A model generated the notes under the pieces. The model made no database searches, had not been told where the DNA came from, and worked only from the letters and a program-made list of their open reading frames with translations. Position numbers and translations under genes: made by a program. Below, piece after piece: positions 10,102 through 53,637 of a stretch of DNA of 64,000 bases (position 1 is the stretch's first letter; each line of letters begins with the position of its first letter). The stretch comes from Candidatus Thiodiazotropha sp. (GTDB taxonomy: Bacteria > Pseudomonadota > Gammaproteobacteria > Chromatiales > Chromatiaceae), in NCBI GenBank assembly GCA_040506195.1, contig JBEVXH010000010.1, positions 16,993 through 80,992 of the forward strand, given 5' to 3'.

Positions 10102-10962
10102 TCAGGCCCTGGGCTTACTCAGCAAGATACTGAGCAAGTCAGCAATACGGTCTCGCATATCCCGGCGGTCAATGATCATATCGATGGCGCCATGATCGAG
10201 TAGAAATTCACTGCGCTGAAAACCTTCAGGGAGCTTTTCGCGCACTGTCTGTTCAATAACCCGGGGGCCTGCGAAACCGATCAAGGCATTCGGCTCCGCC
10301 ACATTGATGTCACCCAGCATCGCCAGGCTGGCCGACACACCACCCATGGTGGGATCGGTCATCACCGAGATAAAGGGCAGACCGCGCTTTTGCAACCGCT
10401 CGAGTGCGGCGCTTGTCTTGGCCATCTGCATCAAAGAGAAGAGTGATTCCTGCATCCGCGCACCGCCACTGGCGGAAAAACAGACCAAAGGAGTGTGTCT
10501 CTCCAACGCCATGTTGACAGCACGCACGAAGCGTTCACCCACGACCGATCCCATCGAGCCCCCCATAAAGCTGAACTCGAAAGCGGCAACAACCAGGTCT
10601 ATACCCTTCAATTGGCCACGCATGGCCACCAAGGCCTCTTTCTCACCCGAACCCTTTTGTGCCTGGCTGAGACGTTCTTTGTACTTTTTGCTGTCCTTGA
10701 ATTTCAAGGGATCAACCGACTCCAGGTTCGCGCCTATCTCCTCCTGGGGTTCCGGATCGAGAAAGGTCTCAAGACGACGCCTGGCGCCAATCCTGTTGTG
10801 ATGGTTGCATTTAGGGCAGACGTCAAGATTCCGTTCCATCTCCGCCCGGTAGAGTATAGCGCTGCACCCCGGACACTTGGCCCATAGTCCCTCCGGTACC
10901 GCACGTTTGTGTCCGGCATCCGTACGAATGCGGCTAGGCATCAGTTTTTCAAACCAACTCAT
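10102..10962 (-). CDS. accD: Acetyl-CoA carboxylase carboxyltransferase beta subunit
   Basis: [12 protein letters not shown] zinc finger, [18 protein letters not shown]. Confidence 0.97.
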
Positions 10963-39133: not shown

Positions 39134-40603
39134 TTACTCGTCGTCCCAGACGAACCCGATGCGTCTGCTTTTCTTTTCTATTTCTTTAGGCAGACTGTTC
39201 AATGCGGCATCGATACTTTCCTGATCAAGCTGCGTCTTCCCGGACTTGGCAGCAAGCCGTGCGGCCTCACGTATAACAAAAGCCGAATCGGAGAGAGCCT
39301 TACCCGTGAGTGCATCGAGAATCTTGTCCAGGTTAAGGTCATCAGATGTCGGCAGCTTGCTCAATAGTGAGTCGACCAGAGACGACACTTCTTCCCTCGA
39401 CGGCATACCGACTTCAATGATGTGGTCGAAACGCCCGCGACGCAGAATGGCCGGATCGATCATTTCGATCATGTTCGTCATGGCGACTAATAGCACCTTG
39501 TTCTTGATGGCTTCGGGAATGCGTCGAAGGAACTCGGCAACCTCTTCAACATGATGCAATCCTGACGAGCTGCCAGATTTCCTATCCGTGAGGAAAGACT
39601 CCATCTCATCAATGACGACCACGGACGGAGCGCCATCAATCGCCGTATCGAAAACCTCAGAGATCTTCTTACTGGTTTCGTGAATATAGGGGCTGCCAAC
39701 GCTGCTGGAATCAATCGAGTAACTGGGCCAATCGATAAATTCGACAAGCCGTTCCACGGCGAAGGTCTTGCCACATCCCGGGGGTCCATGCAGGACGATG
39801 GCTGAAGGGAAATCAATGCCCAGAGCCTGATATTTCTCCGCATTAAAGATGATGTCGATGACGTGTTCGTTAAAAAATTCCTCGAGGTGAGGTCGCCCTG
39901 GAAGTTTGAATATCTTGGATTCGGCCATATCCCCAGGCGATTGTGGCTTTTCAGGTTCGACAGCCTCCTTCGCAGTGGCAGTCTTTGCATCGCTCCGGGA
40001 TTGAGAAGCCGGCTTGCGCTTAGCCAGTAGTCCAGCGTCTGCAGGTACAGCAAACCCGGCAGCGTTTATGATTTCCGCCAGATCACCAGCGGGCATCCAG
40101 CCGGTCAGACTGGTCAACCGCCTGAAGGATTCAGTTGATATGACGACCCCACCGGTAATCCAGGTGCCCAAGACCACCTCATCATCTACGTGGGGTGTCA
40201 GCGTCCAGCCCGGGAGCAATCTGGAGTACTGCTCCACATAAACGGCATCATGGAAAGAGGCACCCTCTGACAATTTCCGGGACTCTTTGAGCGCGAACGC
40301 AAAGGCTATTGCATCGACCTTGCTTTCCGGTGATTTCCCATTCTCAACCGGCGTAAATGCGTACTTCTTATGGCTGCACATACTCCGGAATGATTCACCC
40401 CCGAAAGCGACATCTTCGAACAGGGATTCATCGAGAAAACCGAATTCATTCCACTTCTGCGCCAGCTCTGGACACATAAGCAGGATATTGTTCGAGCCAT
40501 TGGTATCGAATATCTGCCACTCGTCTCCTGAATAGAGGAGCGACCGGACATTCGATCCGTCCGGCAATTCATACCCTTTAGGTAGCCATAAGTCCTTCGC
40601 CAT
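39134..40603 (-). CDS. AAA+ ATPase with an unknown N-terminal domain
   Basis: GPPGCGKT, VVVIDEME, DPAILRRGRFD (second region of homology), C-terminal RRIGF. Confidence 0.9.
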   Translation of the reverse strand: MAKDLWLPKGYELPDGSNVRSLLYSGDEWQIFDTNGSNNILLMCPELAQKWNEFGFLDESLFEDVAFGGESFRSMCSHKKYAFTPVENGKSPESKVDAIAFAFALKESRKLSEGASFHDAVYVEQYSRLLPGWTLTPHVDDEVVLGTWITGGVVISTESFRRLTSLTGWMPAGDLAEIINAAGFAVPADAGLLAKRKPASQSRSDAKTATAKEAVEPEKPQSPGDMAESKIFKLPGRPHLEEFFNEHVIDIIFNAEKYQALGIDFPSAIVLHGPPGCGKTFAVERLVEFIDWPSYSIDSSSVGSPYIHETSKKISEVFDTAIDGAPSVVVIDEMESFLTDRKSGSSSGLHHVEEVAEFLRRIPEAIKNKVLLVAMTNMIEMIDPAILRRGRFDHIIEVGMPSREEVSSLVDSLLSKLPTSDDLNLDKILDALTGKALSDSAFVIREAARLAAKSGKTQLDQESIDAALNSLPKEIEKKSRRIGFVWDDE

Positions 40604-40606
40604 GAA

Positions 40607-43102
40607 TCATCCCCTGATAATGTTGGCCACATCGAACATCTCGTTGTCGGGGCCGCCACCGATTTGAATCATCGAAAGCTGGGCAACCACGGCACGAAGT
40701 TTTTCAATATCATCGGAGCGCATGAGTTGCGTGCCGACCTGGGCGAGTTCCTCGAAACGGTGCTTGTCCGCAAACAGGTGGGGCGAACTGACCATCCATT
40801 TGAACCGCTCGACCACGAACCAGTCTTGCCGCCAAAGGATCTCGAAGTTTTTGCCTTTCAGTTCATCAAGGTGATGCTCGAAATCTTTATCGTTTCGGTC
40901 GATTGAGCGTTGAGCCGTCTTCGCCAGGTTGTCGAAGCCCGACGCTTCGGACGGACGGGCATGCTGCCGGATATGCTCATCGAAGAAGGTCACCACACCG
41001 TCAAGGTCTATCTGACGAATTTCCTTGAGGTGCTCCTTACGTACTTGTGCAAGGAGCCGCCGCGCCTCAAGCACCTTCTCCATAGCCTCCTGGGAGTTCT
41101 CGGTCTCCGCTTCCTCAGGATCGAGGGAGGCAGCGGATTCAAGCTTCTGACGTGCTTGATCCAGTTTCGGGTTGTCCACCACGTCGTTGATCTCGTCGAT
41201 ACGGTTCAGTGTCCGTTCACCCTCCTCGACAACCATGGCGGCGGCCGCGGTGTAATCGAGCTGCCCCTCCTGGCGGGAATAGAAATTCTTCCCGGAATGG
41301 AAGGTCCCGCCGATGCAGGGCACGGATACTTCGATGATGATGTTGCCGGAATCCAGAATCTCGTATTCGCAAGCCAGATCGGCGCCGGCCGGAATTACGC
41401 CGTCGTCAAAATCGGAGCCGGAAATCTTCAAGACGCCGACGGGGCGGTTATCGGTAATAGGGTCTTCGATTTCTCCTTCCCAAAGCGCAAAGTTCAATGA
41501 ACCAGTTGACCCTGCCTTGAGCGATTCGGCCGCCTTGAAGGTCTTACTCCCCCTCTTCGGTAACGAATCACCGGATTTCACCAAATATTCCAGCACCTGT
41601 GGTCCGCCCACCTTATCCAGAACGGCGATAGCGATTGAGTGTGAGGCCGGGATGGCATCCACCGTGGCGGCGGTTCGGGTAATGACGATGCTGTCCTGTT
41701 CCAGGGCGATGGGGCCACCCACGGAATCGAACACGAATACTTTGAAGGTGTTTTCGCCGGTTTTTGTCAGACTAACGTCGAGGGTTGCCCCGTGTTTGAG
41801 CGGCATGCGGCCGGAGGTCCAGCCGGTGTCGACGCTATCGATCTGGAATTCTGAGCCGGACGCAGCCTGGCCCGCCAATTGAACTGCAATCTTGGCCTTA
41901 ACATCCGGAGTGCGGGCGATGTAATTGAAAGACAGTTCCAACCCGCCTCCAGAAGAAATCTGCCCACGGGTGTTCTTGCGAGAACGGTTCTGGGACCCCC
42001 AGTCAATCGACTCCGCAAACAGGCTCGCACCTTCCGCCACGGCTGTCATTGGGTTTACATCGGTGCTTCCCGGAATACCCAGCTCGAATGCAACCTTGTC
42101 TCGCAGCATTTTGTAGTTGGTCGGGCCACCAACGAACACGATGCGCTCCAGGTCATGCGGTGAAAGACCGGCCTTATTGAGTGTCTCTCGTGCAGACTCG
42201 ATTGACTCACCGACGCGTTCGGCAATCAGCTTGTCGTATGTATCACGCTGCAAGGGAATATCAAGATAGACCTCATTGTCGCTGAGATCCCGTACCCGGG
42301 CCTCGGTTTCCGACAGACTGATGACCGAATCCTCGCGTGCCGAAAGTTCAATCTTGGCGCGTTCGGTGGCCCAGGTGGCCAGCCGAATGAGCGACTTGAA
42401 GCTGGGGTTCACGGAAAAGTCTTCCGGGAGGTCGAAGTTTTCCAGCAGCCAGGGGCGTACAACATTATCGACGAGCACGCGGTCGAAATCCCGGCCACCA
42501 CACATGGCAATACCGCCGTGAGCGAGGAGATTAACCCGTCCACCGAGGCTTTCAGCAATAGCGATATCCAGTGTGCCGCCACCCAGGTCGTAAATCAGGA
42601 ACATACCGTCGGTATTGCGGGCGCGCATAACACTCATGACTGCAGCGACCGGTTCCTGCATTAGCGCAACCTTGCCGAGACCGGCCATGCTGGCGGCCTG
42701 CATGGTGGCATCCTTCTGCATCTGGTTAAAAGCAGCAGGAACGGTGATGACGGTTCCGGTATCCGGATCGTTTCGGATTTCCTCAGGCAGGTAACCGAAC
42801 TGAACTTTTAGAATTTCCGCCGAGCACTCTTCCGGAGTCATTGTCATGTTGACCGCCGGAAGATTGATTGGCGTACTGGTACCCATCAACCGCTTGAAAA
42901 GCATCGCAGAGTTGTCCGGGCTTTGCGGCGCCATGTTGTATGCGTTAAAACCAATCTGCTTGTTACCGCGCCTGTCGATATAGATCGCCGAGGGAGTAAC
43001 ATCGTTTTGCTGTGGACTCTTCCACACCCGCGTATCGGAACCGTCATAGGAACAGATTGCGCTGTTTGTTGTACCCAGGTCTATGCCAACGAAATTTTTC
43101 AT
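40607..43102 (-). CDS. Atypical Hsp70-family protein (831 aa)
   Basis: GIDLGTTNS, FKRLMG, TVPAAF, QEPVAA, DLGGGTLD, VGGPT, AVAEGA. An extra domain precedes the SBD-like region. Confidence 0.92.
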   Translation of the reverse strand: MKNFVGIDLGTTNSAICSYDGSDTRVWKSPQQNDVTPSAIYIDRRGNKQIGFNAYNMAPQSPDNSAMLFKRLMGTSTPINLPAVNMTMTPEECSAEILKVQFGYLPEEIRNDPDTGTVITVPAAFNQMQKDATMQAASMAGLGKVALMQEPVAAVMSVMRARNTDGMFLIYDLGGGTLDIAIAESLGGRVNLLAHGGIAMCGGRDFDRVLVDNVVRPWLLENFDLPEDFSVNPSFKSLIRLATWATERAKIELSAREDSVISLSETEARVRDLSDNEVYLDIPLQRDTYDKLIAERVGESIESARETLNKAGLSPHDLERIVFVGGPTNYKMLRDKVAFELGIPGSTDVNPMTAVAEGASLFAESIDWGSQNRSRKNTRGQISSGGGLELSFNYIARTPDVKAKIAVQLAGQAASGSEFQIDSVDTGWTSGRMPLKHGATLDVSLTKTGENTFKVFVFDSVGGPIALEQDSIVITRTAATVDAIPASHSIAIAVLDKVGGPQVLEYLVKSGDSLPKRGSKTFKAAESLKAGSTGSLNFALWEGEIEDPITDNRPVGVLKISGSDFDDGVIPAGADLACEYEILDSGNIIIEVSVPCIGGTFHSGKNFYSRQEGQLDYTAAAAMVVEEGERTLNRIDEINDVVDNPKLDQARQKLESAASLDPEEAETENSQEAMEKVLEARRLLAQVRKEHLKEIRQIDLDGVVTFFDEHIRQHARPSEASGFDNLAKTAQRSIDRNDKDFEHHLDELKGKNFEILWRQDWFVVERFKWMVSSPHLFADKHRFEELAQVGTQLMRSDDIEKLRAVVAQLSMIQIGGGPDNEMFDVANIIRG

Positions 43103-43479
43103 CGTTCCACCTTCCTTAAAGTGACGGTTCCTGTCTTAACCAAACCTTCTTTCCCCATGATGATCGGCTCGAGCATCTGATCGACCATCAAGGCATCCTT
43201 CGTATCGAACTCGTCGATATTGAGGGGCGTGGCGGCCATTCCCGAATCGAAGGCATGACCCTCGACATTTACGATTCTCAAATCCGCTCGTTCCAGGGCC
43301 TCTTCGACCTTTTTGATGAACCAACGGAACTGGCTCTTGTACCGATTCTGTTCCCCGGCATCGAGCTTCAACAGCAGACGATCAAACACCCGACCGAAGC
43401 GCCAGGACTCCACTGCCATACTGATCACCGCATCCCGCATGGCCTCGGGGGTCATTGTGGTTTGTTCAGAGTCCGCCAT
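43099..43479 (-). CDS. GrpE-like protein
   Basis: EEALERADLRIVNVEGHAFDSG...QMLEPIIM...LVKTGTV parallels the GrpE beta-domain. ATGA overlap with the Hsp70 gene; start at 43479 has a GGAG RBS. Confidence 0.6.
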   Translation of the reverse strand: MADSEQTTMTPEAMRDAVISMAVESWRFGRVFDRLLLKLDAGEQNRYKSQFRWFIKKVEEALERADLRIVNVEGHAFDSGMAATPLNIDEFDTKDALMVDQMLEPIIMGKEGLVKTGTVTLRKVER

Positions 43480-43505
43480 ATTTTTCTCCGTGTTCATTAA
43501 AATTC

Positions 43506-46487
43506 TTAGTAGTACTGCCGGATGTATCCGAATGCCTTGTCAAACAGGTCCTGATCCTTGATCTTGTATTTGACGTAAATCACCTTGCGCAGCGCTTTCT
43601 GCACTTCACGTTCTCCTGCCTTGGTGTCCTGCCAACCCGGAAAGCGAACCAGACGCACAATCTCGTCGATGTCGGCCACAATCCGCTCGACCACGACCGG
43701 CGTCTTGCCGCTCTTCACCTCAACGAACAGCTCGGTCAAAGCCGCTTTCGCCTTCGCCTGTTCATCGACGGGGTCCACCCGCTTCTCGGCCTGAACGACC
43801 TCCTTGGCCAGAGTCAGCAGCTCCTTGAGAAAATCGATGCTGTGCAGCAGCCCCTGTTCATGCCGTTCTTTCAGCTTTTCGAGACGCTCGCCCAGGGCTA
43901 CGAACTTCGGGTTGTCCTTGTGCTTGCGCAATCGGGCAATAATCTTGATCTCGATCTCCTTGGATTTTTTCTCCGGGTCCTTGGCATCGAGCAATCCCTC
44001 AAGCACTTCGGCGTCCATCACCAGGGTGTCTAAATCGTCCCGCACGGTTTCCAGGTGGACATTTTCGTGGACCAGTTCGATGGTCTTTGCCCCAAGCGTA
44101 TGCCAGAGCAGTTTGCCGTTACCGCTCGGCGGTTTTACCGATTCATAGATCTGGGTCAGCCATTTGTAGTCGGTTTGGTAGGGCCCCAGGCAGGGGTCTG
44201 GGGACAATGCCTCCCAGAGACGGGAGAGCACTGAGTATTCAGCCGCAAACCTGTCCCGGGTCTCGTTATCCGGCAGGCAGTCCTGCGCCGCAATCAGTCC
44301 CTCGTAGCCGCCGACGGTGCGGTCCACTCCGGGGAAGAACGCCAGACATTTCGCCACCACGCCCGGCAGTTCTTTCTTGAGGTCATCCAGGTTGGTGATG
44401 ACCTTCTGCACCGCTTTCTCGTCGAAATCGAGTGCCGTGGCCACGTCGTCGAAGATGCCGAGGTAGTCCACGATCAGGCCATGGGTCTTGCCGGTATAGA
44501 CGCGGTTGGTTCGGCAGATCGCCTGCAGCAGGTTGTGGTCCTTCATCGGTTTGTCCAGATACATGACCTGCAAAATCGGCGCATCGAATCCGGTCAGCAG
44601 CTTGGAGGTGACGATCAGGAATTTGAGCGGGTCTTCAGGATCCCGGAATCGATCCAGCAGCTCCTCCTCTTCATCCTTGGAAAGTTTCCACTCGGCAAAT
44701 GCGTCCGACTTGCCGCCCTGGGTATGCATGACAATGGCACTTGCCTCTGGGCCGACCAGCTCGTCCATGGCCTTCTTATAGAGCACGCAGCATTCCCGGT
44801 CGAAGGTCACCACCTGGGCCTTGAAACCGTTCGGCTCGACCTTGTCCCGGTAGTGATTGACAATGTGCTGGCAGATGGCCTGCACACGGGCCGGGGCCTT
44901 GATCAGCACCGCCATTTTGGCGGCCCGCCTGGCCAGGTCATCCTTATCCTCTTCGCTCAACTGGTCGGTCATCTGAGCATAGGCTTCGTCGATGGCATCC
45001 TTATCGATGTGCAGTTTTACGTCCACGGCCTCAAAGTGAAGCGGCAACGTGGCCTTGTCCCGGATCGAGTCCTGGAACGAGTAGCGGCTCATGTAGCCTT
45101 GCTCATCTTCATCCGCGCCGAATGCCCAGAAGGTGTTACGGTCCCGCTTGTTGATCGGCGTGCCGGTCAAGCCAAAGAGGAAAGCATTGGGCAGCGCATC
45201 TCGCATCTGGCGACCCAGATCACCTTCCTGGGTGCGGTGCGCCTCGTCCACCATCACAATGATGTTCGGGCGCTCGTTCAGGCGGCCGCCCGCCTCGCCG
45301 AACTTGTGAATGGTGGTGATGATGATCTTGCGGGTATCGGCTGCCAGCAGGCTTTGTAGTTCCTGTCGAGTAGCGGCCCCGATCATGTTTGGGATATCGG
45401 CGGCGTTGAAGGTGGCGGTGATCTGGGTGTCCAGGTCGATGCGGTCCACCACGATCATCACCGTGGGGTTGCCGAGCTTGCGATGCATCCGCAGCTTCTG
45501 CGCCGCGAACACCATCAGAAGCGACTTGCCCGAGCCCTGAAAGTGCCAGATCAGGCCCTTCTTGGGATACCCCTTGACCACACGGGCGACCATCAGATTC
45601 GCGCCTTCGTACTGCTGATAGCGGCAGATGATCTTGATGCGGCGGTGTTTCTTGTCGGTGGCGAACAGGGTAAAGTTCTGTAGGATGTCCAGCACCACAT
45701 GGGGTCGCAGCATGGAACGGATGGAGCGCTGCACGTCTGCAAGGGTCCCCTCGGCCTTGTTGTCACCTTCGTGCCACGGCCCCCAGATATCGATGGGCAT
45801 GCGCACCGAGCCGTAGCGATAGCACTTACCCTCGGTAGCAAAGGAGAGGACGTTGGGTACGAACATCTGCGGCACGCTCTGTTCGTAGCCGTTGTGGATG
45901 TCGCTGGCCCCGTCCACCCAGGTCACCGCCGGGCGCACCGGCGTCTTGGCCTCGCCGATCACCAGTGGGATGCCATTGACCAGCATGATGATGTCGAAGC
46001 GCCGGCCACCCTCCTTGACCGGATAAACCCACTGGTTGGTGACCACGTAGTCGTTATTGCTCAGGTTCTCGAAGTCAATCAGGCGCACCGGCGTGTGTTC
46101 GCCGCGTTCACCGAAGGGCATGGACTTCTCACCCCGCAGCCATTCGGCGAACAGCTCGTTGGCCCGCACCAGTCCTTCGCTCTGTACCGACAGAGGAATG
46201 GTTCGCAGGCGATAGAGCACCTCGTCGGCGCGGTCAGGCTGGGCCTTGATTTCCGGATTCAGGCGGATGAGGGCCTCGCGTACCACCGACTCCACCAGTA
46301 CATCAGAGTGTTGGCGTGGTAATTCCTCGGCGGATACGAAACGCCATTTAAGGCTTGTAATCTGAAGGGTGAGGTGTGAATCAAGATAATCAGTCTGCGG
46401 CTCAGCAACGCACCACTGATTGTCCTTGTCAGACAGCGTGTCCAGCACGAGTTGTTCAACTGTATTTTCCTCATTGAAATAGGTCAT
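43506..46487 (-). CDS. hsdR: Type I restriction enzyme R subunit
   Basis: FDIIMLVNGIPLVIGEAK nuclease motif, HFQGSGKS, DEAH, LLTGFDAP. Confidence 0.95.
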   Translation of the reverse strand: MTYFNEENTVEQLVLDTLSDKDNQWCVAEPQTDYLDSHLTLQITSLKWRFVSAEELPRQHSDVLVESVVREALIRLNPEIKAQPDRADEVLYRLRTIPLSVQSEGLVRANELFAEWLRGEKSMPFGERGEHTPVRLIDFENLSNNDYVVTNQWVYPVKEGGRRFDIIMLVNGIPLVIGEAKTPVRPAVTWVDGASDIHNGYEQSVPQMFVPNVLSFATEGKCYRYGSVRMPIDIWGPWHEGDNKAEGTLADVQRSIRSMLRPHVVLDILQNFTLFATDKKHRRIKIICRYQQYEGANLMVARVVKGYPKKGLIWHFQGSGKSLLMVFAAQKLRMHRKLGNPTVMIVVDRIDLDTQITATFNAADIPNMIGAATRQELQSLLAADTRKIIITTIHKFGEAGGRLNERPNIIVMVDEAHRTQEGDLGRQMRDALPNAFLFGLTGTPINKRDRNTFWAFGADEDEQGYMSRYSFQDSIRDKATLPLHFEAVDVKLHIDKDAIDEAYAQMTDQLSEEDKDDLARRAAKMAVLIKAPARVQAICQHIVNHYRDKVEPNGFKAQVVTFDRECCVLYKKAMDELVGPEASAIVMHTQGGKSDAFAEWKLSKDEEEELLDRFRDPEDPLKFLIVTSKLLTGFDAPILQVMYLDKPMKDHNLLQAICRTNRVYTGKTHGLIVDYLGIFDDVATALDFDEKAVQKVITNLDDLKKELPGVVAKCLAFFPGVDRTVGGYEGLIAAQDCLPDNETRDRFAAEYSVLSRLWEALSPDPCLGPYQTDYKWLTQIYESVKPPSGNGKLLWHTLGAKTIELVHENVHLETVRDDLDTLVMDAEVLEGLLDAKDPEKKSKEIEIKIIARLRKHKDNPKFVALGERLEKLKERHEQGLLHSIDFLKELLTLAKEVVQAEKRVDPVDEQAKAKAALTELFVEVKSGKTPVVVERIVADIDEIVRLVRFPGWQDTKAGEREVQKALRKVIYVKYKIKDQDLFDKAFGYIRQYY

Positions 46488-49069
46488 TTCTGTCCGCCTC
46501 CCGCCAATGAGGAAAGTTTTTTGCTCGTCAATCTTGCCAGAATGTCATCACTTCCCAGTTTCGCTTCGGCCATCTTGCGTGCAGCAAGCTCCCTCCATTC
46601 AATGACTCCAGGCGACTGGAAAGAGTCCCAGAGCGTACGCATTGTTGTCATGCATTCTTCTGAAAACTTTTTGAAGTCTTCAACGCTTATGTAAAAAACA
46701 TCTCCCGTGTGAGGTTCAGCAGCAAAATGCAATTTGTCCGACGTCGAACAAAATACGACCGAGAAACTTACTCCAGGGTGTTCTGCTGCGAGGGTGTCTG
46801 GATGGGCCTTGGCTTGAAGTGTTTTCTCTTTTGAGACGACAGGATTCTCTCCGGTTGCCGTGTAATCCTCAAAAACAACGCCCTGTCGTCCAAAGATCCA
46901 CCACGGGTCAGGATCACCGGATCGCTCAATGTTCCCCGATTCAAAACCCAGCAGGCGACCGAGCTTGACCTGCGCTTCTTCAAACGGCTTTGATTCCGTG
47001 CTTGAAAGCCCTTCCCGGATGGCCTGGAAATATTTTTCGATTTTCACGCTGCCAGACTTTCCAAACCGCTCAAGGACTCCTTCTATACGCTCGATGCGCT
47101 CTCCATAAATGACATCGACGGGTGCTTCCTGCGTCTGGTTGGAGAGCAGCTTTTGAATCTGTTTGAGCCATGGCAACGTACTGGCGCATGAAAAGGCAGC
47201 AGAAAAATGTTCTTGAGCTATCTGTGCTTGCTCCGCCTGGAAGGCTGCCGAGCCAGCAAGGTAATTCCAAAGAGCAGAATATCCCTTCAGATCATGCCCA
47301 CCGGCGAGGCTGGCCAACACGTCTTTTGCGGAAGAAAGCGCGCTGTCAAAATCGCCGGACCAAAGGGCATCGTGAAATTTCACTTCATGCACAACAGAGT
47401 TCCCGACCGGACTTGCCGATGGTATGGGCGATTGAGTCAGTTCGTCTCTTGTTTCCAATATATGGTTATCGGCCGATTTCCACTCTGGCCCGTGGGCAAC
47501 GAATATGTCGATGTTATCCCCCAGTTCAGACGGATTATCGACTTTTGATTGTTCGACACCAAAATTGACTTCGGCCTGAAGTTCCGGATGTAGTGTTTCT
47601 CGCTTTTCCGGCATGTGGAAATACTGATGCACCTTGTCGCCGATAATCACCACGAGCGCATAGTCGGTTGATGAGCGTGTGCATCTTCCTACCGCCTGAG
47701 TGATCCTGGTGCAGATGCGAACCTGGAAGAGGACAGAGGCCCCAAGGCGGCTGATGATGAAGCGCTCCTGAAGATTTGTAGATTCCGGAAGACCATAGAT
47801 GATCAGGTATCTGCATTCGTCTCCGATCAGATCGATTCCGTCATACCTGTTCGCCAGAACCGCAATGGCGGAACCAGCTTGGGTAAATGATTTCTTCGAC
47901 GCCTCCAGTTGTGCGGCGTCAAAGAGGGTATGACCCTGCGTCGCCGGAAGTACTCCAATGACTTCTCTGACTTTGTCAGCATCACGGTTACTTGGGGTGA
48001 GGACGAGTGCTCTGTCAAATTTCGTAGTCCAGGAAATCGCGAGGCTCAATGAAGCCGCTTCATCCCACACCCTCATAGGAAACACGAAGAAGCGTCGACC
48101 GATTCCCTGCTTATCCCAGCCCTCTGGAGCGGGTATCCGTTCGATTTTCTTCCGCCCGAAAATTCTTTCCAGATCCCCGCCTTCTCCGAGAGTCGCGGAC
48201 ATATAAATGCGCTGCCGCGCATTCTGAAACGGCGCAAAGCTCTTGGTGGGCGCGATAAGAGGACGAATGAGAATGGAATTGCTGGTGTAATAGAGATGAC
48301 AGGCGTGGAGGTGATCTCTGATCATGCGCCATCGATAACCGTATTCCTCCGGGCTCTCATCGTCTCTGGAGGCAGTGTCAATCGCTGCCGTCAGAGCGGT
48401 CCTGCACTTGAGTAAATAAGGCGTCGGGATCTTGTTCACGAATGACGTATCAAGCGATCCCTCATTACCCTGGTCGTAACGGAGCTGGTCATTTTCCGTG
48501 GTGTAAGGCGCGATGATCTGCCAGATTGCATCGAAGGTAGATTCATCCTGATAGCGCCGGACCTCCAACGACCAGAAACTCGACACATAATTCTCGGCGG
48601 CGTGGGCATCGTCAAAAATGAGTGTATGGACATCGCTGAAAAACGGATTTGTGTTGAACAGAGCGCTGTAGGTGGCAACGCCTATTGATTCGCAATTGTT
48701 GAAAGCGGTCTTGTCGGCCTCCGGGTACTGGTGTTTGGACCCCGAGAAATCAAGAGCGTTGATTCCGTATTTTTCTTTGGCCTGTTCAACGACCTGATGG
48801 ACAAGCTGTTTGGTAGGACAAAGCAGTACGCACCTCTCCCGTTTTGTTCTTCTGCGCCACTCTGCGATCAGGAGGCCAACCAGGGTCTTGCCGCTGCCGG
48901 TGGGCAGCTCAAGTGCGATATCACGATTGTCGACATGGTCCATGTAGTTGCGGAGCATGTCTGCCTGCTGCGCAAGAAGGCCTTCTACGGTACGGTCCCG
49001 CAGATCACGGAACAGCGACTCAGGATCTTTGATGGATACCGAATATTTCTGAGGGATTTTAAATGCCAT
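46484..49069 (-). CDS. SF2 (DinG/XPD-like) helicase with a C-terminal nuclease-like domain, Hna-like
   Basis: LPTGSGKT, DDAH, SATLG, YDGIDL, QAVGRCTR; C-terminal GDPDPWW...VVFED. Start at MAFK (49069) behind an AGGAGG RBS. Confidence 0.75.
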   Translation of the reverse strand: MAFKIPQKYSVSIKDPESLFRDLRDRTVEGLLAQQADMLRNYMDHVDNRDIALELPTGSGKTLVGLLIAEWRRRTKRERCVLLCPTKQLVHQVVEQAKEKYGINALDFSGSKHQYPEADKTAFNNCESIGVATYSALFNTNPFFSDVHTLIFDDAHAAENYVSSFWSLEVRRYQDESTFDAIWQIIAPYTTENDQLRYDQGNEGSLDTSFVNKIPTPYLLKCRTALTAAIDTASRDDESPEEYGYRWRMIRDHLHACHLYYTSNSILIRPLIAPTKSFAPFQNARQRIYMSATLGEGGDLERIFGRKKIERIPAPEGWDKQGIGRRFFVFPMRVWDEAASLSLAISWTTKFDRALVLTPSNRDADKVREVIGVLPATQGHTLFDAAQLEASKKSFTQAGSAIAVLANRYDGIDLIGDECRYLIIYGLPESTNLQERFIISRLGASVLFQVRICTRITQAVGRCTRSSTDYALVVIIGDKVHQYFHMPEKRETLHPELQAEVNFGVEQSKVDNPSELGDNIDIFVAHGPEWKSADNHILETRDELTQSPIPSASPVGNSVVHEVKFHDALWSGDFDSALSSAKDVLASLAGGHDLKGYSALWNYLAGSAAFQAEQAQIAQEHFSAAFSCASTLPWLKQIQKLLSNQTQEAPVDVIYGERIERIEGVLERFGKSGSVKIEKYFQAIREGLSSTESKPFEEAQVKLGRLLGFESGNIERSGDPDPWWIFGRQGVVFEDYTATGENPVVSKEKTLQAKAHPDTLAAEHPGVSFSVVFCSTSDKLHFAAEPHTGDVFYISVEDFKKFSEECMTTMRTLWDSFQSPGVIEWRELAARKMAEAKLGSDDILARLTSKKLSSLAGGGQK

Positions 49070-49202
49070 GGAGTAACCCTCCTTGGTTTCTATTGCATGC
49101 ACCGCCGTAACTGGCGAGCTTTTCGGCAACCATGTTCGAAGTTACGCCCTCGCAGAGCGTGTCGAGAACCATCTGTTCGACCGTGTTTTCTTCGTTAAAC
49201 AT
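49059..49202 (-). pseudogene. Vestigial 47-codon copy of the hsdR 5' end
   Basis: Manual translation gives MFNEENTVEQMVLDTLCEGVTSNMVAEKLASY..., versus functional HsdR MTYFNEENTVEQLVLDTLSDKDNQWCVAEPQTDY. Confidence 0.85.
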
Positions 49203-50376
49203 GGGTGGCTCCCTTTGTCACATCATTCGCAATTTGCCGTTGAAGCCCAAGAAGAACTTCAACATGCTTAGTTAGCTGTTCCTCACCAGCACTAATGGTT
49301 GAAAGTTTATCCACGATTTCTCTTTGAACATGAAGGCCAGGAACAAGCAGCTTATGCTGTCGCAGATCCTTTCCATTAACTTTCCATATTCCATTTGTGG
49401 ATTTAGCAAAAGCCAGGAGTTTTCCGTGAGTCAAGGGGTCATTCCATTGCTCGACTGCAAAGGCGGGAAGAATCTGTTTTTCATCGAAAGCTATTCGGAT
49501 GAGAAGATCAGGATAAAAACAATTCTCTGGTAGTTCTGATACAAGACCAGCTTTTCCACAGAGGGTTTTGTTGCCGTTACCTCTCACAACTAAAATATCC
49601 CCCGAAGCTAAACGAAACTTCTCAAGGTCCGATGGTGAGATTTCGGCATATTTTGTATTTCCATTCGGATCAACTTTTCCATCCCTTACCGCACCAATAC
49701 TTAATGTGGGACAACCTGCTTCTGATGCGTTAGTCTTAGGAGAAAAGCCATTCCGAGGTGGTGTGCTGTATAATTTACTGCATGCCACCTCACGGGTTGA
49801 CTCATGTCGCAAAGACGCTCTAAGTGTTTGGCTTTTTAGGGCGGCAAGTGCGTTCAAAGATTCTTTGTATTTCTGCACTGCATCATCCGCTGTCCACAGG
49901 ATCTCGGCAATGCGCTTCTGTTCATCGAGGGGTGGCAGCGGGAACTCCTGCACTTTCAAAGCTTTCCAATTGATCGTTGGTGAGAGTGATCCCACCGATA
50001 TTTCAATGGCCCGCTCCATGAACATATCGGACTGCAGAAAGAACGGCAGAAAATCTGGGAGAATATGCTTTCCTGTTGGTCTCAGAACCATTCCATGAGC
50101 AGAGAAGAAACCGTCATGCGGAGCAATTGCGACTCGGCGAAGATAGGCATTGCGCTTTGCAAAAAGTAAGTCGCCTTTTTTCATGCGAAGCTTTTGACCT
50201 TTCAGGTCGGCATCAGAACCCCAGCGTTTGACATGTAGCGAGCCCGAGTCGAGGTGCTCTAACCCGATATAATTACGGCTGTCTTCTTCGGTTGGTTGGC
50301 CTTGTTCTCGGACGCATTCAACAAAGTCCCCAAACTTCAATATTTTCCAAGCAGGCTTCAGATTTTGCTCACTCAT
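49195..50376 (-). CDS. hsdS: Type I RM specificity subunit
   Basis: Two TRDs separated by PLPPLDEQKRIAEIL; second conserved region PGLHVQREIV. Confidence 0.92.
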   Translation of the reverse strand: MSEQNLKPAWKILKFGDFVECVREQGQPTEEDSRNYIGLEHLDSGSLHVKRWGSDADLKGQKLRMKKGDLLFAKRNAYLRRVAIAPHDGFFSAHGMVLRPTGKHILPDFLPFFLQSDMFMERAIEISVGSLSPTINWKALKVQEFPLPPLDEQKRIAEILWTADDAVQKYKESLNALAALKSQTLRASLRHESTREVACSKLYSTPPRNGFSPKTNASEAGCPTLSIGAVRDGKVDPNGNTKYAEISPSDLEKFRLASGDILVVRGNGNKTLCGKAGLVSELPENCFYPDLLIRIAFDEKQILPAFAVEQWNDPLTHGKLLAFAKSTNGIWKVNGKDLRQHKLLVPGLHVQREIVDKLSTISAGEEQLTKHVEVLLGLQRQIANDVTKGATHV

Positions 50377-51899
50377 AGAGCACCTCCTCCTATTCGTGCG
50401 CCCTCAAGCACATTGATGAGGTCACTCATAGAATCCCGGAGATCCATCGAGCTTTCCTGCCAGTTGGTAATAGCGTCGGTCAAACTGACATCTTCGTTAC
50501 TGCCATTTCCATGACTTCGATCCGAACGAATGACATTCACATAAAGTGGCAAATTCAAGCTGCACTCTTTTCCCCGGATCTCGTCGTTACTGACCACCCG
50601 GGCAAAACCGCCCTCATCGCCAAAGGCCTGGTAAGCGGAGACAATACGCTGGAGGTGGTCATCAGTAAGAAAGCTCTGCGCTCGCTCGCGGGTCACCTCG
50701 TTCACCGCGTTGATGAAGAGCACCTTGTTCCTGCGCTCCTTGGGCTTGTTCATCCGGCAGATAACAACGCAGGCTTCCATGGGTGAGTTGTAGAAAAGGT
50801 TAGGCCCGAGACCCAGCACACACTCCACTACGTCATGGGCGACCAGCTTCTCACGCATAGCCAGTTCCTCGTTGCGGAAGAGGACGCCATGCGGAAACAG
50901 GATGGCGCAGCGGCCGCTCCTGGTCTTCATGCTCTGGATGATGTGCTGCCAGAAGGCATAGTCGGCGCGGCCCTGTGGCGGAGTGCCGTAGATGTTCCGG
51001 CCCCACGGATCGGCGGCCCAGGCTTCGCGGTCCCACTGCTTGATGGAATACGGCGGATTGGCCAGCACCACATCGAACTCCATGAGCCGGTCGCCTTCGA
51101 CGAATGCGGGATGGGCCAGGGTATCGCCCCGGACGATGCGGAAGTCCTCGATGCCGTGCAGGAACAGGTTCATGCGGCCGATGGCCGAGGTGAGCAGGTT
51201 GCGCTCCTGACCATAGAGTCTAAGGTTGCGCCATTCCTTGTTCTGCCGCTTGAGATGGGTGACGGCGGAGAGCAGCATGCCGGCCGAACCACACGTCGGG
51301 TCATAGATCGACTCGCCCGGCCTGGGTTCGAGCATCTCGGTCATCAGGTGAACCACGGTGCGGTTGGTATAGAACTCCGCAGCGGTATGGCCGGAATCGT
51401 CGGCGAACTTCTTGATCAGAAATTCATAGCCCACACCCAGCTCATCCTCCGGGCAGTTGGTAACTGAAAGCGTCTGAGAGCTAAAATGCTCAATCAGTTC
51501 GCGCAGCATGTGGTCAGGCAGGCGGTCCTTATTGGTCCACTGGGCATCGCCGAAGACCCCGTAGAGGGTGTCAGGGTTGGCCTTCTCTATGGCTCGCAGG
51601 GCATCCTGGATGGCCTTGCCCACATTCTTGACCTTGGTGCGGGTCGCCTTCCAGTGGGCATCCTCCGGGATCTGGAAACGGTGCTGCTCGGGCAGCGCAG
51701 CGTATTCCTGGTCACCGCCAGATTCTTCCAGCGCATCGGCCAGTTCCTCGTCGTACACGTCGCACAGCCGCTTGTAGAACAGTAGAGGGAAGATGAATTG
51801 CTTGTAATCCCCGGCGTCGATGTAGCCACGCAGCAAGGTAGCCGCACCCCAGAGATAGGATTCCAGCGCTGATTGGGAAATGTGCTTGCTCTTCTTCAT
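50373..51899 (-). CDS. hsdM: Type I RM methyltransferase subunit M2 (NPPY)
   Basis: DPTCGSAGML and VLANPPY. Start at ATG 51899 (ATGA overlap). Confidence 0.93.
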   Translation of the reverse strand: MKKSKHISQSALESYLWGAATLLRGYIDAGDYKQFIFPLLFYKRLCDVYDEELADALEESGGDQEYAALPEQHRFQIPEDAHWKATRTKVKNVGKAIQDALRAIEKANPDTLYGVFGDAQWTNKDRLPDHMLRELIEHFSSQTLSVTNCPEDELGVGYEFLIKKFADDSGHTAAEFYTNRTVVHLMTEMLEPRPGESIYDPTCGSAGMLLSAVTHLKRQNKEWRNLRLYGQERNLLTSAIGRMNLFLHGIEDFRIVRGDTLAHPAFVEGDRLMEFDVVLANPPYSIKQWDREAWAADPWGRNIYGTPPQGRADYAFWQHIIQSMKTRSGRCAILFPHGVLFRNEELAMREKLVAHDVVECVLGLGPNLFYNSPMEACVVICRMNKPKERRNKVLFINAVNEVTRERAQSFLTDDHLQRIVSAYQAFGDEGGFARVVSNDEIRGKECSLNLPLYVNVIRSDRSHGNGSNEDVSLTDAITNWQESSMDLRDSMSDLINVLEGARIGGGAL

Positions 51900-52123
51900 C
51901 GCGCTATCACTTCCCATTCGTATATGTCCGTTGGAATATCAACGCCATCCAGGGAGTCCCAATCGTAGTCACCGGTTGCCTGGGTGTAGACGTCATCAGC
52001 CGCAGCCAGGGCTGAGTGATAGGAACCGAGCAACTCGTCCTTGAACCACAGGCCCCAGCGGCCATTGGCTTGCGGTTTGATGAGGAAACGGCCGATCGGC
52101 GACCTGTACTGATACATCTTCAT
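51896..52123 (-). CDS. 75-aa hypothetical protein between the two hsdM genes
   Basis: ATGA overlaps at both ends; globular-looking, Trp/Asp-rich sequence. Confidence 0.7.
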   Translation of the reverse strand: MKMYQYRSPIGRFLIKPQANGRWGLWFKDELLGSYHSALAAADDVYTQATGDYDWDSLDGVDIPTDIYEWEVIAR

Positions 52124-53637
52124 AGCAAGCCCTCCCGTATCAGCAGGCCCTTCAGGCGATCTTCTGCTGCATACGCTGCCTGCAGCGATTCATTGAGGTT
52201 GGCGACGGCCTGATCGATGGTCATGAATTCTTCCTCGATCACCGGTTCCACGTAACGAGGGATATTCAGGTTGAAGTCGTTTTCCCGGATTTCATCGAGC
52301 GTGACCACCCGGCAGATCCCTTCGACATCCTGATAGCCTTCGTACCAGTGGTGGATGTTGTCCACGTGCTCCGGCAGCAGCTCGTTCTGCGCCCGGCCGG
52401 TCTTGAACTCCTTCGAGGCATCGATGAACAGCACCTTCTGGCGGTGCGGTTTCGGCTTACTGTCCCGAAAGACCAGCACACAGGGCGCGAGACCGGTGCC
52501 GTAGAAAATGTTCTGGCCGAGACCGATCACCGCTTCGAGGATGTCCATCTCCAGCAGCTTGCGGCGGATTTTGCCTTCCTTGGACATGCGGAACAGCACG
52601 CCATGGGGTACTACCACCGCCATGCGGCCCGTTTTACGGGCCATGGATTTAATCATGTGCTGGACCCAGGCGAAGTCGCCGGACTTGGCCGGCGGCAACC
52701 CGGCAAAGTTGCGGCCGTAGGGATCATTGACCCAAACATCATCCCCCCACTTTTCCAGGGAGAACGGTGGATTGGCGATGACGCAATCAAAGGTGGCGAG
52801 GCTGTCGCCCGAGTAAAAGGCAGGCAAGCGCAGCGTGTCACCGCGTTCGATATGGAAATCTTCCGCGCCGTGGAGAAAGAGGTTCATCCGGGCAATGGAG
52901 GATGTGGTCAGGTTCTTTTCCTGGCCATAAAGCTTGCCCAGCATGAGGTTCTCGTCACCGCCATGCTCTTTGACATGGTGCAGCGCCTCGAGAAGCATGC
53001 CACCGGTGCCGCAGGCTGGGTCATAGATGGTTTCCCCGGCCTTGGGCGCAAGGATGCGAACCATCAGCGCGACCACGGAACGCGGAGTATAGAACTCACC
53101 GGCCTTCTTGTTGGTGAGGTCGGCAAATTTCTTGATCAGGTATTCGTAGGCCTGGCCGAGGATGTCCGCCTTGCAGTGTTCATTGCCCAGGTTGAGCGAC
53201 GAGAAGTGTTCGATCAGGTCCTTGAGCAGTGCGTCCGAAAGGCGGTCCTTGTTGGTCCACTGGGCATCGCCGAAGATGCCGTGCAGGGTGTCGGGATTGG
53301 CCTGCTCGATGCAGCGCATGGCCTTCTGGAGTGCATGACCGATATTGGCGCTTTTTGCCCGGACATCTTGCCAATGGCAGCCCTCCGAAACCTGGAATCG
53401 GTGGTTCTCGGGGAACTGCGCGAATTCCACGTCACCGTCGGACTCTTCCAGTGCAACGGCATACTCTTCGTCATAAACATCAGAGAGCCGTTTGAAGAAA
53501 AGCAGCGGGAAGATGTAGGTCTTGAAGTCGGCCGCATCGACAGGACCGCGCAGGATATTGGCCGCCTCCCAGAGATGCCCGGAGAGGGTCCCGATATCCA
53601 GATCGACTGAATTGTTTTTTCCGTTCCTTGGGCTCAT
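52120..53637 (-). CDS. hsdM: Type I RM methyltransferase subunit M1 (NPPF)
   Basis: DPACGTGGML, VIANPPF, GEFYTP. Confidence 0.93.
   Translation of the reverse strand: MSPRNGKNNSVDLDIGTLSGHLWEAANILRGPVDAADFKTYIFPLLFFKRLSDVYDEEYAVALEESDGDVEFAQFPENHRFQVSEGCHWQDVRAKSANIGHALQKAMRCIEQANPDTLHGIFGDAQWTNKDRLSDALLKDLIEHFSSLNLGNEHCKADILGQAYEYLIKKFADLTNKKAGEFYTPRSVVALMVRILAPKAGETIYDPACGTGGMLLEALHHVKEHGGDENLMLGKLYGQEKNLTTSSIARMNLFLHGAEDFHIERGDTLRLPAFYSGDSLATFDCVIANPPFSLEKWGDDVWVNDPYGRNFAGLPPAKSGDFAWVQHMIKSMARKTGRMAVVVPHGVLFRMSKEGKIRRKLLEMDILEAVIGLGQNIFYGTGLAPCVLVFRDSKPKPHRQKVLFIDASKEFKTGRAQNELLPEHVDNIHHWYEGYQDVEGICRVVTLDEIRENDFNLNIPRYVEPVIEEEFMTIDQAVANLNESLQAAYAAEDRLKGLLIREGLL

Follow-up and report, generated by a model that had tools for sequence, protein, structure and literature searches.

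We report that the restriction-modification (R-M) locus in a 64,000-nucleotide stretch of a Candidatus Thiodiazotropha sp. genome (GenBank assembly GCA_040506195.1, contig JBEVXH010000010.1, positions 16,993 to 80,992; hereafter the window) has two beginnings of the restriction gene hsdR, one on either side of a helicase gene. The locus is a co-oriented minus-strand operon in which stops and starts overlap, with the order hsdM1, hsdM2, hsdS, helicase and hsdR, and it represents a complete Type I system. Between hsdS and the helicase gene lies a small open reading frame (ORF) of 47 codons, which very probably is the stranded old start of hsdR, the helicase having come as a cassette together with a replacement start for the gene. 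Specifically, the ORF is the old hsdR 5' end (49202 to ~49100, 34 codons) followed by 13 cassette codons that are read through.

Related loci were collected in an HsdR search, which gave 80 loci from many phyla with up to 95% identity (labelled L001 etc.), and in a second search with the MTYF-type N-terminus against metagenome contigs, which gave more helicase loci and other layouts.

The small ORF, whose ATG is at 49202, shares 8 nt with hsdS (ATGTTTAA); the hsdS stop codon TAA (49197-49195) lies within these first 8 nt of the old hsdR start. Its own stop codon (49061-49059) is found 8 nt beyond the helicase ATG (49069), i.e. the two reading frames overlap by 11 nt. The translation, MFNEENTVEQMVLDTLCEGVTSNMVAEKLASYGGACNRNQGGLLHGI followed by the stop, falls into two parts, MFNEENTVEQMVLDTLCEGVTSNMVAEKLASYGG and then ACNRNQGGLLHGI. 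The working hsdR, with the N-terminus MTYFNEENTVEQLVLDTLSDKDNQWCVAEPQTDY, starts in the ATGA (46487-46484) that is common to the helicase stop and the hsdR start, and the pattern FNEENTVEQxVLDTL..VAE..Y is present in both the ORF and the working HsdR. This likeness is beyond chance since the BLASTP E-value is 1e-8, with 18 identical residues out of 31. In the 15-codon core of the two copies 14 residues are the same while 10 of these 14 codons differ, and the nucleotide identity is 33/45. Moreover, the GC content at third codon positions (GC3) is 0.51 for hsdR codons 1-47 compared to 0.78 for codons 76-993 and 0.56 for the helicase gene, and the lowest value of any 47-codon stretch in the hsdR body is 0.64. 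A first-pass annotation of this DNA had described the small ORF running from the hsdS stop into the helicase start, the ATGA overlap, the mostly synonymous differences between the copies and the AT-rich first ~50 codons of hsdR; all of these were recovered at the positions given there, and the similarity between the ORF and hsdR, which could have proved to be non-significant, held.

The polarity of the event is given by the cargo-free relatives. Adjacent hsdS and hsdR genes are present in 77 of all loci gathered; in 55 of these the genes overlap by the same 8 nt and all 55 start with MF (MFNEE). In the adjacent loci with this overlap hsdR has the small-ORF version of the start, MFNEENTVEQMVLDTLCGGVTSNMVAEELASYGGEIKGWRF, which leads on into the hsdR body as had been predicted for cargo-free relatives from the MFNEENTVEQM beginning of the ORF. 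The finding that had been named as speaking against this order of events, an MTYF start in cargo-free relatives, is absent from all cargo-free loci gathered (0 of the 77 adjacent-gene loci). Among 26 MTYF-type loci 23 have cargo upstream and three have a short leader and a leftover, and the working starts that follow cargo are of the type M-x-x-F (MTYF, MALF, MAYF, MAHF and others), not MF. Furthermore, the first 34 codons of the ORF match the HsdR start of the cargo-free locus L011 at 31 of 34 positions (E=3e-21). The earlier proposal of a helicase insertion within the 5' end of hsdR, with a replacement start brought along, is thus supported by the cargo-free starts, together with the GC3 values and the recurrence described below.

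No empty site in a sister strain is available, since a close homologue of the window hsdR was detected in 0 of 24 same-genus genomes (best match 58% identity), and in viral contigs only distant relatives were found (40-43% identity). The window hsdR is 90-95% identical to loci from other phyla, and the Hsp70/AAA module downstream of hsdR has an Hsp70 counterpart in L011 with 93-98% identity. The R-M operon and the Hsp70 neighbour that are common to L011 (window 39134-53637) constitute a recently imported, highly mobile and strain-specific island.

Both junctions could be placed at base resolution. The ORF is 91-95% identical at the nucleotide level to cargo-free alleles up to nt 101-103 (...TACGGCGG), after which the identity falls from 94% to 35%. 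Filled and empty loci were paired on the basis of near-identical hsdS genes (L003/L141, 96.5%; L001/L126, 96.2%). In the L003/L141 pair the left flank, reaching as far as nt 103 of the old hsdR, is 91-99% identical; beyond this point identity falls to 35%, and from the TGGCG of codon 48 the right flank is back to 92-100%. From nt ~190 the window hsdR agrees with cargo-free alleles at 92-100% of nucleotides. The position of the cassette is taken in the empty allele by 11 nt (AGATCAAAGGC, part of EIKG), and the loss from the recipient at the left joint is 11-13 nt (..GAGATCAAAGGC). EIKG is kept in the cargo-free sequence and is missing from the filled loci, hence the empty state is not derivable from the filled one by deletion and the event was therefore an insertion. 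The left junction is identical in all 15 distinct helicase loci with an alignable leftover, and in the most distant helicase locus, L030 (helicase 83% identical), the leftover is degraded and still ends with ...LYGG/A, the stroke marking the joint.

The two hsdR beginnings also differ in what they travel with. The sliding identity of the first ~140 nt of the window hsdR is 82-95% to close cargo-bearing loci and 32-76% to cargo-free loci, and from nt ~190 the identity to both groups is ~90% or more. Mantel tests were performed on MAFFT-aligned segments from the 15 distinct helicase loci. The distances for the helicase 3' end correlate with those for the replacement start (r=0.85, p=0.0002), while correlations with the hsdR body are low for the replacement start (r=0.09) and the helicase (r=0.07-0.21); for the leftover the correlation is r=0.63 (p=0.009) with the hsdR body and r=0.35-0.38 with the helicase. 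This pattern is suggestive of a replacement start that belongs to the cargo and a leftover that belongs to the resident gene, and it would fit a cassette passing between resident operons by homologous recombination in both flanks.

Other parts of the hsdR 5' region also stand out. The stretch nt ~130-220 (window 46268-46357) is 67-85% identical to every close relative, cargo-bearing or not, while both sides of it are ~90% or more identical to the relatives, and its GC3 is intermediate (0.64); this is a private diverged patch just to the right of the cassette, which may have arisen by further recombination. The first 16 residues of HsdR, FNEENTVEQ[ML]VLDTL (window 46442-46487 and all related loci), are outside the Pfam HSDR_N domain, which begins at residue 45, and are among the most constrained parts of the gene (ratio of nonsynonymous to synonymous differences per site, pN/pS, 0.03). 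This 16-residue motif is followed by a hypervariable linker of 10-60 residues.

The first-pass annotation had suggested that other loci with cargo between hsdS and hsdR be searched for the same duplication, and it is present there. The search used an nhmmer profile and a short protein hidden Markov model (HMM), as a strict N-terminal motif missed mutated leftovers (L004, L016). The short HMM, built on working N-termini, was run on every hsdS-hsdR gap >60 nt with the reverse strand as control. An upstream 5' copy was found in 34 of 56 loci with such a gap; 30 scored above 10 bits and the best reverse-strand control had -1.0 bits. Cargo of >300 nt is present in 26 of the 70 loci of the unbiased sample, i.e. 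the one gathered with hsdR, and a leftover is seen in 10-14 of these 26. At least 10 further combinations of cargo and junction show the scar (examples in Table 1), the leftovers are 11-156 codons long, and the left junctions are at codons 11, 20, 30, 34, ~90 and 156. The same replacement start is also present downstream of other cargo, and the replacement-start cassette is hence not private to the helicase. In L098 three starts are seen in a row: an MF-type leftover of 20 codons is followed by a 23S-rRNA-IVP-family gene, a leader and an MTYF-type start truncated at codon 95, and then by further cargo and last a working MSLF-type hsdR. The process is therefore iterative, and an MTYF start can itself become a leftover.

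As to how the locus was formed, we propose that a resident operon, hsdM1-hsdM2-hsdS-hsdR, in which the hsdR start MFNEENTVEQM overlapped the hsdS stop by 8 nt, would have recombined with 2.75 kb of DNA from a related operon consisting of an Hna-like helicase gene, the ATGA overlap and the first 47 codons of the donor hsdR. The right crossover would have been homologous and located in the conserved hsdR body at ~codon 48, while the left joint would have been non-homologous, after codon 34 of the resident hsdR and with the loss of 11-13 nt. The product would be a chimeric but intact hsdR, with a foreign start and a resident body from ~codon 48, to which a candidate defence gene is translationally coupled. 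What keeps the old start, 34 codons long and now stranded, in place is the hsdS stop codon contained in its first 8 nt. Likewise, because hsdS and hsdR overlap, a joint upstream of the anchor that leaves hsdS whole must fall in the hsdR start, and leftovers are therefore the rule. The founding event may have combined one-sided homologous and illegitimate recombination, resembling homology-facilitated illegitimate recombination (HFIR); two of its hallmarks, a homologous anchor on one side (the hsdR body) and an abrupt non-homologous joint with a small loss on the other, are found here. Later spread would have been of the finished cassette, moved between operons by homologous recombination with the leftover (~100 nt) and the hsdR body as arms. 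The helicase cassette is present in operons with many different hsdS alleles and always with one identical joint, so ordinary homologous recombination suffices for its spread.

Some points weigh against this scheme. The founding event was single and old, because even L030 has the same YGG/A joint, and its mechanism is one that we infer. A donor locus with the helicase but no leftover, against which microhomology at the illegitimate joint could be judged, was not found among the loci gathered; GGCG-type strings are present at both joints. In the unbiased sample no leftover is detectable in about half of the loci with cargo, and other entry routes or complete decay must therefore occur. The Mantel tests are based on 15 related sequences and a 101-nt segment, and are suggestive rather than proof. 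Finally, the pN/pS of the leftovers, 0.32, is below 1 and does not prove full neutrality, although some of the divergence is older than the insertion and a value <1 is therefore expected.

The last point bears on the suggestion in the first-pass annotation that the old start persists as a translational relay. In this alternative, selection keeps the ORF as a carrier of ribosomes from the hsdS stop to the helicase start, and helicase expression depends on it. The position of the ORF, beginning in the hsdS stop region and ending 8 nt past the helicase ATG, would suit such a role, in most helicase loci the ORF remains open as far as the same stop, and coupling would make sense in cargo-less relatives, where the leftover ORF ends in a leader ~10 nt before the hsdR ATG and a predicted long-range helix of 27 bp includes the hsdR ribosome-binding site (RBS). 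However, the 13 cassette codons would stay open by chance about half of the time, and the helicase start is preceded by a strong Shine-Dalgarno sequence of its own, AAGGAGGG. Relative to the cargo-free consensus pN/pS is 0.32 for the leftovers and 0.08 for working MF-type starts (Fisher p=1.8e-7), and even in the 16-codon core (codons 2-17), which is invariant in working genes, replacements have accumulated (0.21 vs 0.03). Moreover, the leftover has premature stops at codon 28 in L001/L002/L094 and at codon 41 in L085, its start is lost or its frame shifted in L087/L088/L093, and it is barely recognisable in L030 and L099. Hence, though open in the window, the ORF is not conserved across relatives in the way expected for a coupling upstream ORF. 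Given these interruptions, the relaxed constraint and the separate helicase RBS, the relay did not stand up and we regard a selected relay function as unlikely. Judged from its sequence the leftover is a decaying gene fragment, probably without a required function of its own; ribosomes may run through it in the window genome, but selection for such use is not visible.

The right end of the cassette is a GTGAAG-rich arm, of which the window contains one exact copy. An inverted partner is located directly upstream of the hsdR ATG, after a shortened leftover, in the MTYF-type loci without cargo (L014/L152, L090, L096, L097, L098 and L106); e.g. in L097:2285-2475 and L106:9955-10150 the sequence of hsdR codons ~36-46 recurs in inverted orientation as a 34-nt GTGAAG-rich leader, and it is within this leader that the shortened leftover ORF ends. 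Pairing of the arms is predicted to extend over ~27 bp and to cover the RBS and the start (z -3.9 and -3.2), and both arms are conserved, with no covariation support. In the window the hsdR 5' region has no left arm, its predicted fold is no better than shuffled (z=-0.83) and the long-range helix is absent. No Rfam family matched in the window region or in L097/L016, with the exception of one tRNA. A scan of six genomes for the arm motif gave 1-4 copies in each, nearly all on the contig with the R-M locus; since copies spread beyond this locus were not found, we rejected the arm as a miniature inverted-repeat transposable element of the host.

Palindromic or repeated copies of the motif were also observed in frame within hsdR in L016 (~10440-10530), L105 (~1330-1400), L010 (~10500), L098 (~7700) and L106 (~10720). 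They follow VVTNQW (near codon 163) and GPWH (near codon 240), adding 20-30 residues that are absent from the window HsdR. An extra copy is present just upstream of hsdM2 in L010 (3122). In L014:10069-10260 and L152:2684-2870 the repeat arm has lost 14 nt by deletion, so that the MSYF start and the hsdR body are no longer in the same frame, and hsdR in these two loci is either dead or uses another start.

The arms raise the question of whether the cassette is mobile in a site-specific manner, i.e. whether the GTGAAG-rich inverted repeats are element ends or sites like the attC of integrons, served by a recombinase that acts in trans and inserts the element into the hsdR start. The replacement-start module of the cargo-less loci has an inverted arm of ~34 nt on each side, abutting both junctions, the in-frame palindromic copies at two other hsdR sites and the copy upstream of hsdM2 in some loci might be read as further sites, and the right arm is the last sequence of the window cassette. 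Yet a left arm is missing from the helicase cassette, which contains no long ORF other than the helicase, the left junctions are scattered, no target-site duplication was seen, the motif has not proliferated in the genomes scanned, and cargo with other replacement starts (MALF, MAHF, MAYF) has no arms. A recombinase gene and a direct repeat shared by both ends, which would be expected of an element of the e14/icd type, were both absent from the cassette, and we consider site-specific movement highly improbable. An in-situ tandem duplication of the hsdR 5' end, with divergence and later placement of the helicase between the copies, is hardly credible: the copies are indeed collinear direct repeats of the same gene end, but the upstream one is 91-95% nucleotide-identical to present-day cargo-free starts and the downstream one 32-76% over the same stretch, and the downstream copy differs in linker, length and GC3 and varies together with the helicase rather than with the hsdR body, which already contradicts duplication.

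Insertion of a cassette with its own hsdR start thus remains our preferred explanation. A more speculative extension, which we hold to be rather doubtful, is that these loci form a recombinase-free cassette system in which the ~100-nt leftover would act as a portable left arm, the hsdR body as the right arm and the MTYF module as an adaptor, with burial of the RBS delaying restriction. The MTYF module is found behind at least four unrelated cargos. If this were true, RecA could move any cargo between operons of the window's hsdR family, and in the cargo-less loci, where the RBS would be buried, HsdR would be made only from ribosomes delivered via the leftover ORF, which would constitute a built-in delay of restriction.

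The features of the window operon and of related loci with leftovers are listed in Table 1. The two methyltransferase paralogues are ~52% identical to each other, both occur in most related loci that extend far enough upstream, and hsdM1 is kept with 83-98% identity in most related loci. By gene content, with two full-length hsdM paralogues together with one hsdS and one hsdR, the operon resembles the m6A/m4C subgroup; Morgan et al. in 2016 reportedly described this Type I R-M subgroup as having two methyltransferase subunits.

Table 1. Features of the window operon (window coordinates) and leftovers associated with other cargo in related loci
Feature	Location	Strand	Basis or remark
hsdM1, first methyltransferase paralogue	52120-53637	minus	Pfam N6_Mtase E=4e-102, HsdM_N
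hsdM2, second methyltransferase paralogue	50373-51917	minus	Pfam N6_Mtase E=1e-84, HsdM_N
hsdS specificity subunit	49195-50376	minus	Pfam Methylase_S
47-codon ORF	49059-49202	minus	old hsdR 5' end + cassette codons
Cassette, 2,753 nt (own RBS, helicase gene, replacement hsdR start)	46347-49099	minus	filled/empty comparison L003/L141
SF2 (superfamily 2) helicase of Hna/PDC-S28 kind, 861 aa	46484-49069	minus	PADLOC, Pfam and PDB matches
Replacement hsdR 5' end, 47 codons, MTYFNEENTVEQLVLDTLSDKDNQWCVAEPQTDYLDSHLTLQITSLK	46347-46487	minus	GC3, identity profile, Mantel tests
GTGAAG-rich repeat arm at cassette right end (TTCACACCTCACCCTTCAGATTACAAGCCTT), ~31 nt	46350-46380	minus	encodes extra residues HLTLQITSL
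Intact hsdR, 993 aa	43506-46487	minus	NCBIfam hsdR E=1e-154; Pfam HSDR_N, SWI2_SNF2, T1R_D3-like
Mrr_cat nuclease + AlbA_2/HATPase_c_4	L010, L016/L091, L095		leftover ends after codon 30
Fic/DOC	L104		leftover 156 codons
AlbA_2	L108		leftover ~90 codons
AlbA_2	L153		leftover 11 codons
GNAT-like + AAA_17 pair	L021, L139, L024		leftover present, lengths vary
1178-aa protein, archaeal metagenome-assembled genome	L056		leftover present
PRTase-CE + reverse transcriptase (retron-like), verrucomicrobial contig	L079:296-3046		47-residue leftover upstream
Nested case	L098:4600-7960		three 5' copies

The helicase matches PADLOC PDC-S28 (PDLC04987) over its full length (E=1.4e-111, residues 12-853 of 861) and has the Pfam domains DEAD, ResIII and Helicase_C_2. 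Its residues 12-509 also match chain residues 15-507 of Hna (PDB 10UJ/9YKJ; E=4.1e-37). The two proteins share the SF2 helicase core and are of similar length (861 aa here vs 845 aa; PMC13381803), whereas the C-terminal half of the window helicase has no sequence match to Hna (the match ends at residue 509), and Hna is described as a stand-alone gene while the window helicase is translationally coupled to hsdR. The guilt-by-embedding study (Payne et al., bioRxiv 10.1101/2024.01.29.577857; PMC11411939) lists PDC-S28 among its 145 untested defence candidates, and the helicase is accordingly a candidate embedded defence gene in a Type I R-M operon. Other defence genes embedded in such operons are PrrC in EcoprrI and TgvAB in Vibrio VPI-2 (bioRxiv 10.1101/2024.01.29.577857; PMC11411939). 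As in that catalogue, the window has a co-oriented candidate between hsdS and hsdR, but the embedded-defence papers report neither a stranded hsdR start nor a cargo-linked replacement start. A published description of stranded hsdR starts was not found in our literature search, which is not proof of novelty.

With respect to mechanism, the closest parallels are the arrays of type VI secretion system (T6SS) effector-immunity genes and the orphan tips of Rhs and contact-dependent inhibition (CDI) genes, for which HFIR has been proposed (PMC5361080, citing de Vries and Wackernagel 2002, Prudhomme 2002, and Meier and Wackernagel 2003 for the process). There, as here, a conserved part of the gene anchors one side and the joint on the other side is illegitimate, the displaced end is orphaned and decays, and repeated events stack, as in L098 with its three 5' copies. 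In the Rhs/CDI and T6SS cases, however, the 5' end is constant and orphaned 3' tips accumulate downstream. The window scar is the mirror image, with a constant 3' hsdR body and orphaned 5' starts upstream, and the displaced hsdR piece has no immunity function that would preserve it.

A second parallel is icd, into which prophage e14 and phage 21 are reported to integrate (Hill et al., 1989), the element supplying a substitute gene end. In this case the element brings a diverged end of the target gene, the gene stays intact, and the original end is left as a mostly synonymous pseudo-copy. Unlike the window cassette, e14 uses an integrase and attachment (att) sites and replaces a 3' end; here the 5' end with the start codon is replaced, and neither a recombinase nor an att core is present.

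Embedding in R-M operons serves the discovery of immune systems, and Payne et al. (bioRxiv 10.1101/2024.01.29.577857) noted that its significance and origin are still to be explored; how embedded genes enter was unexplained in the literature that we consulted. For one large and widely transferred Type I family our data give an answer at base resolution: the cargo travels joined to a downstream hsdR start, enters via the hsdR body and strands the start of the recipient. The scar is a readable marker of past insertions, of their polarity and relative age, and could serve to find cargo boundaries automatically. Finally, the model predicts that such cassettes can be transferred between operons by plain homologous recombination.

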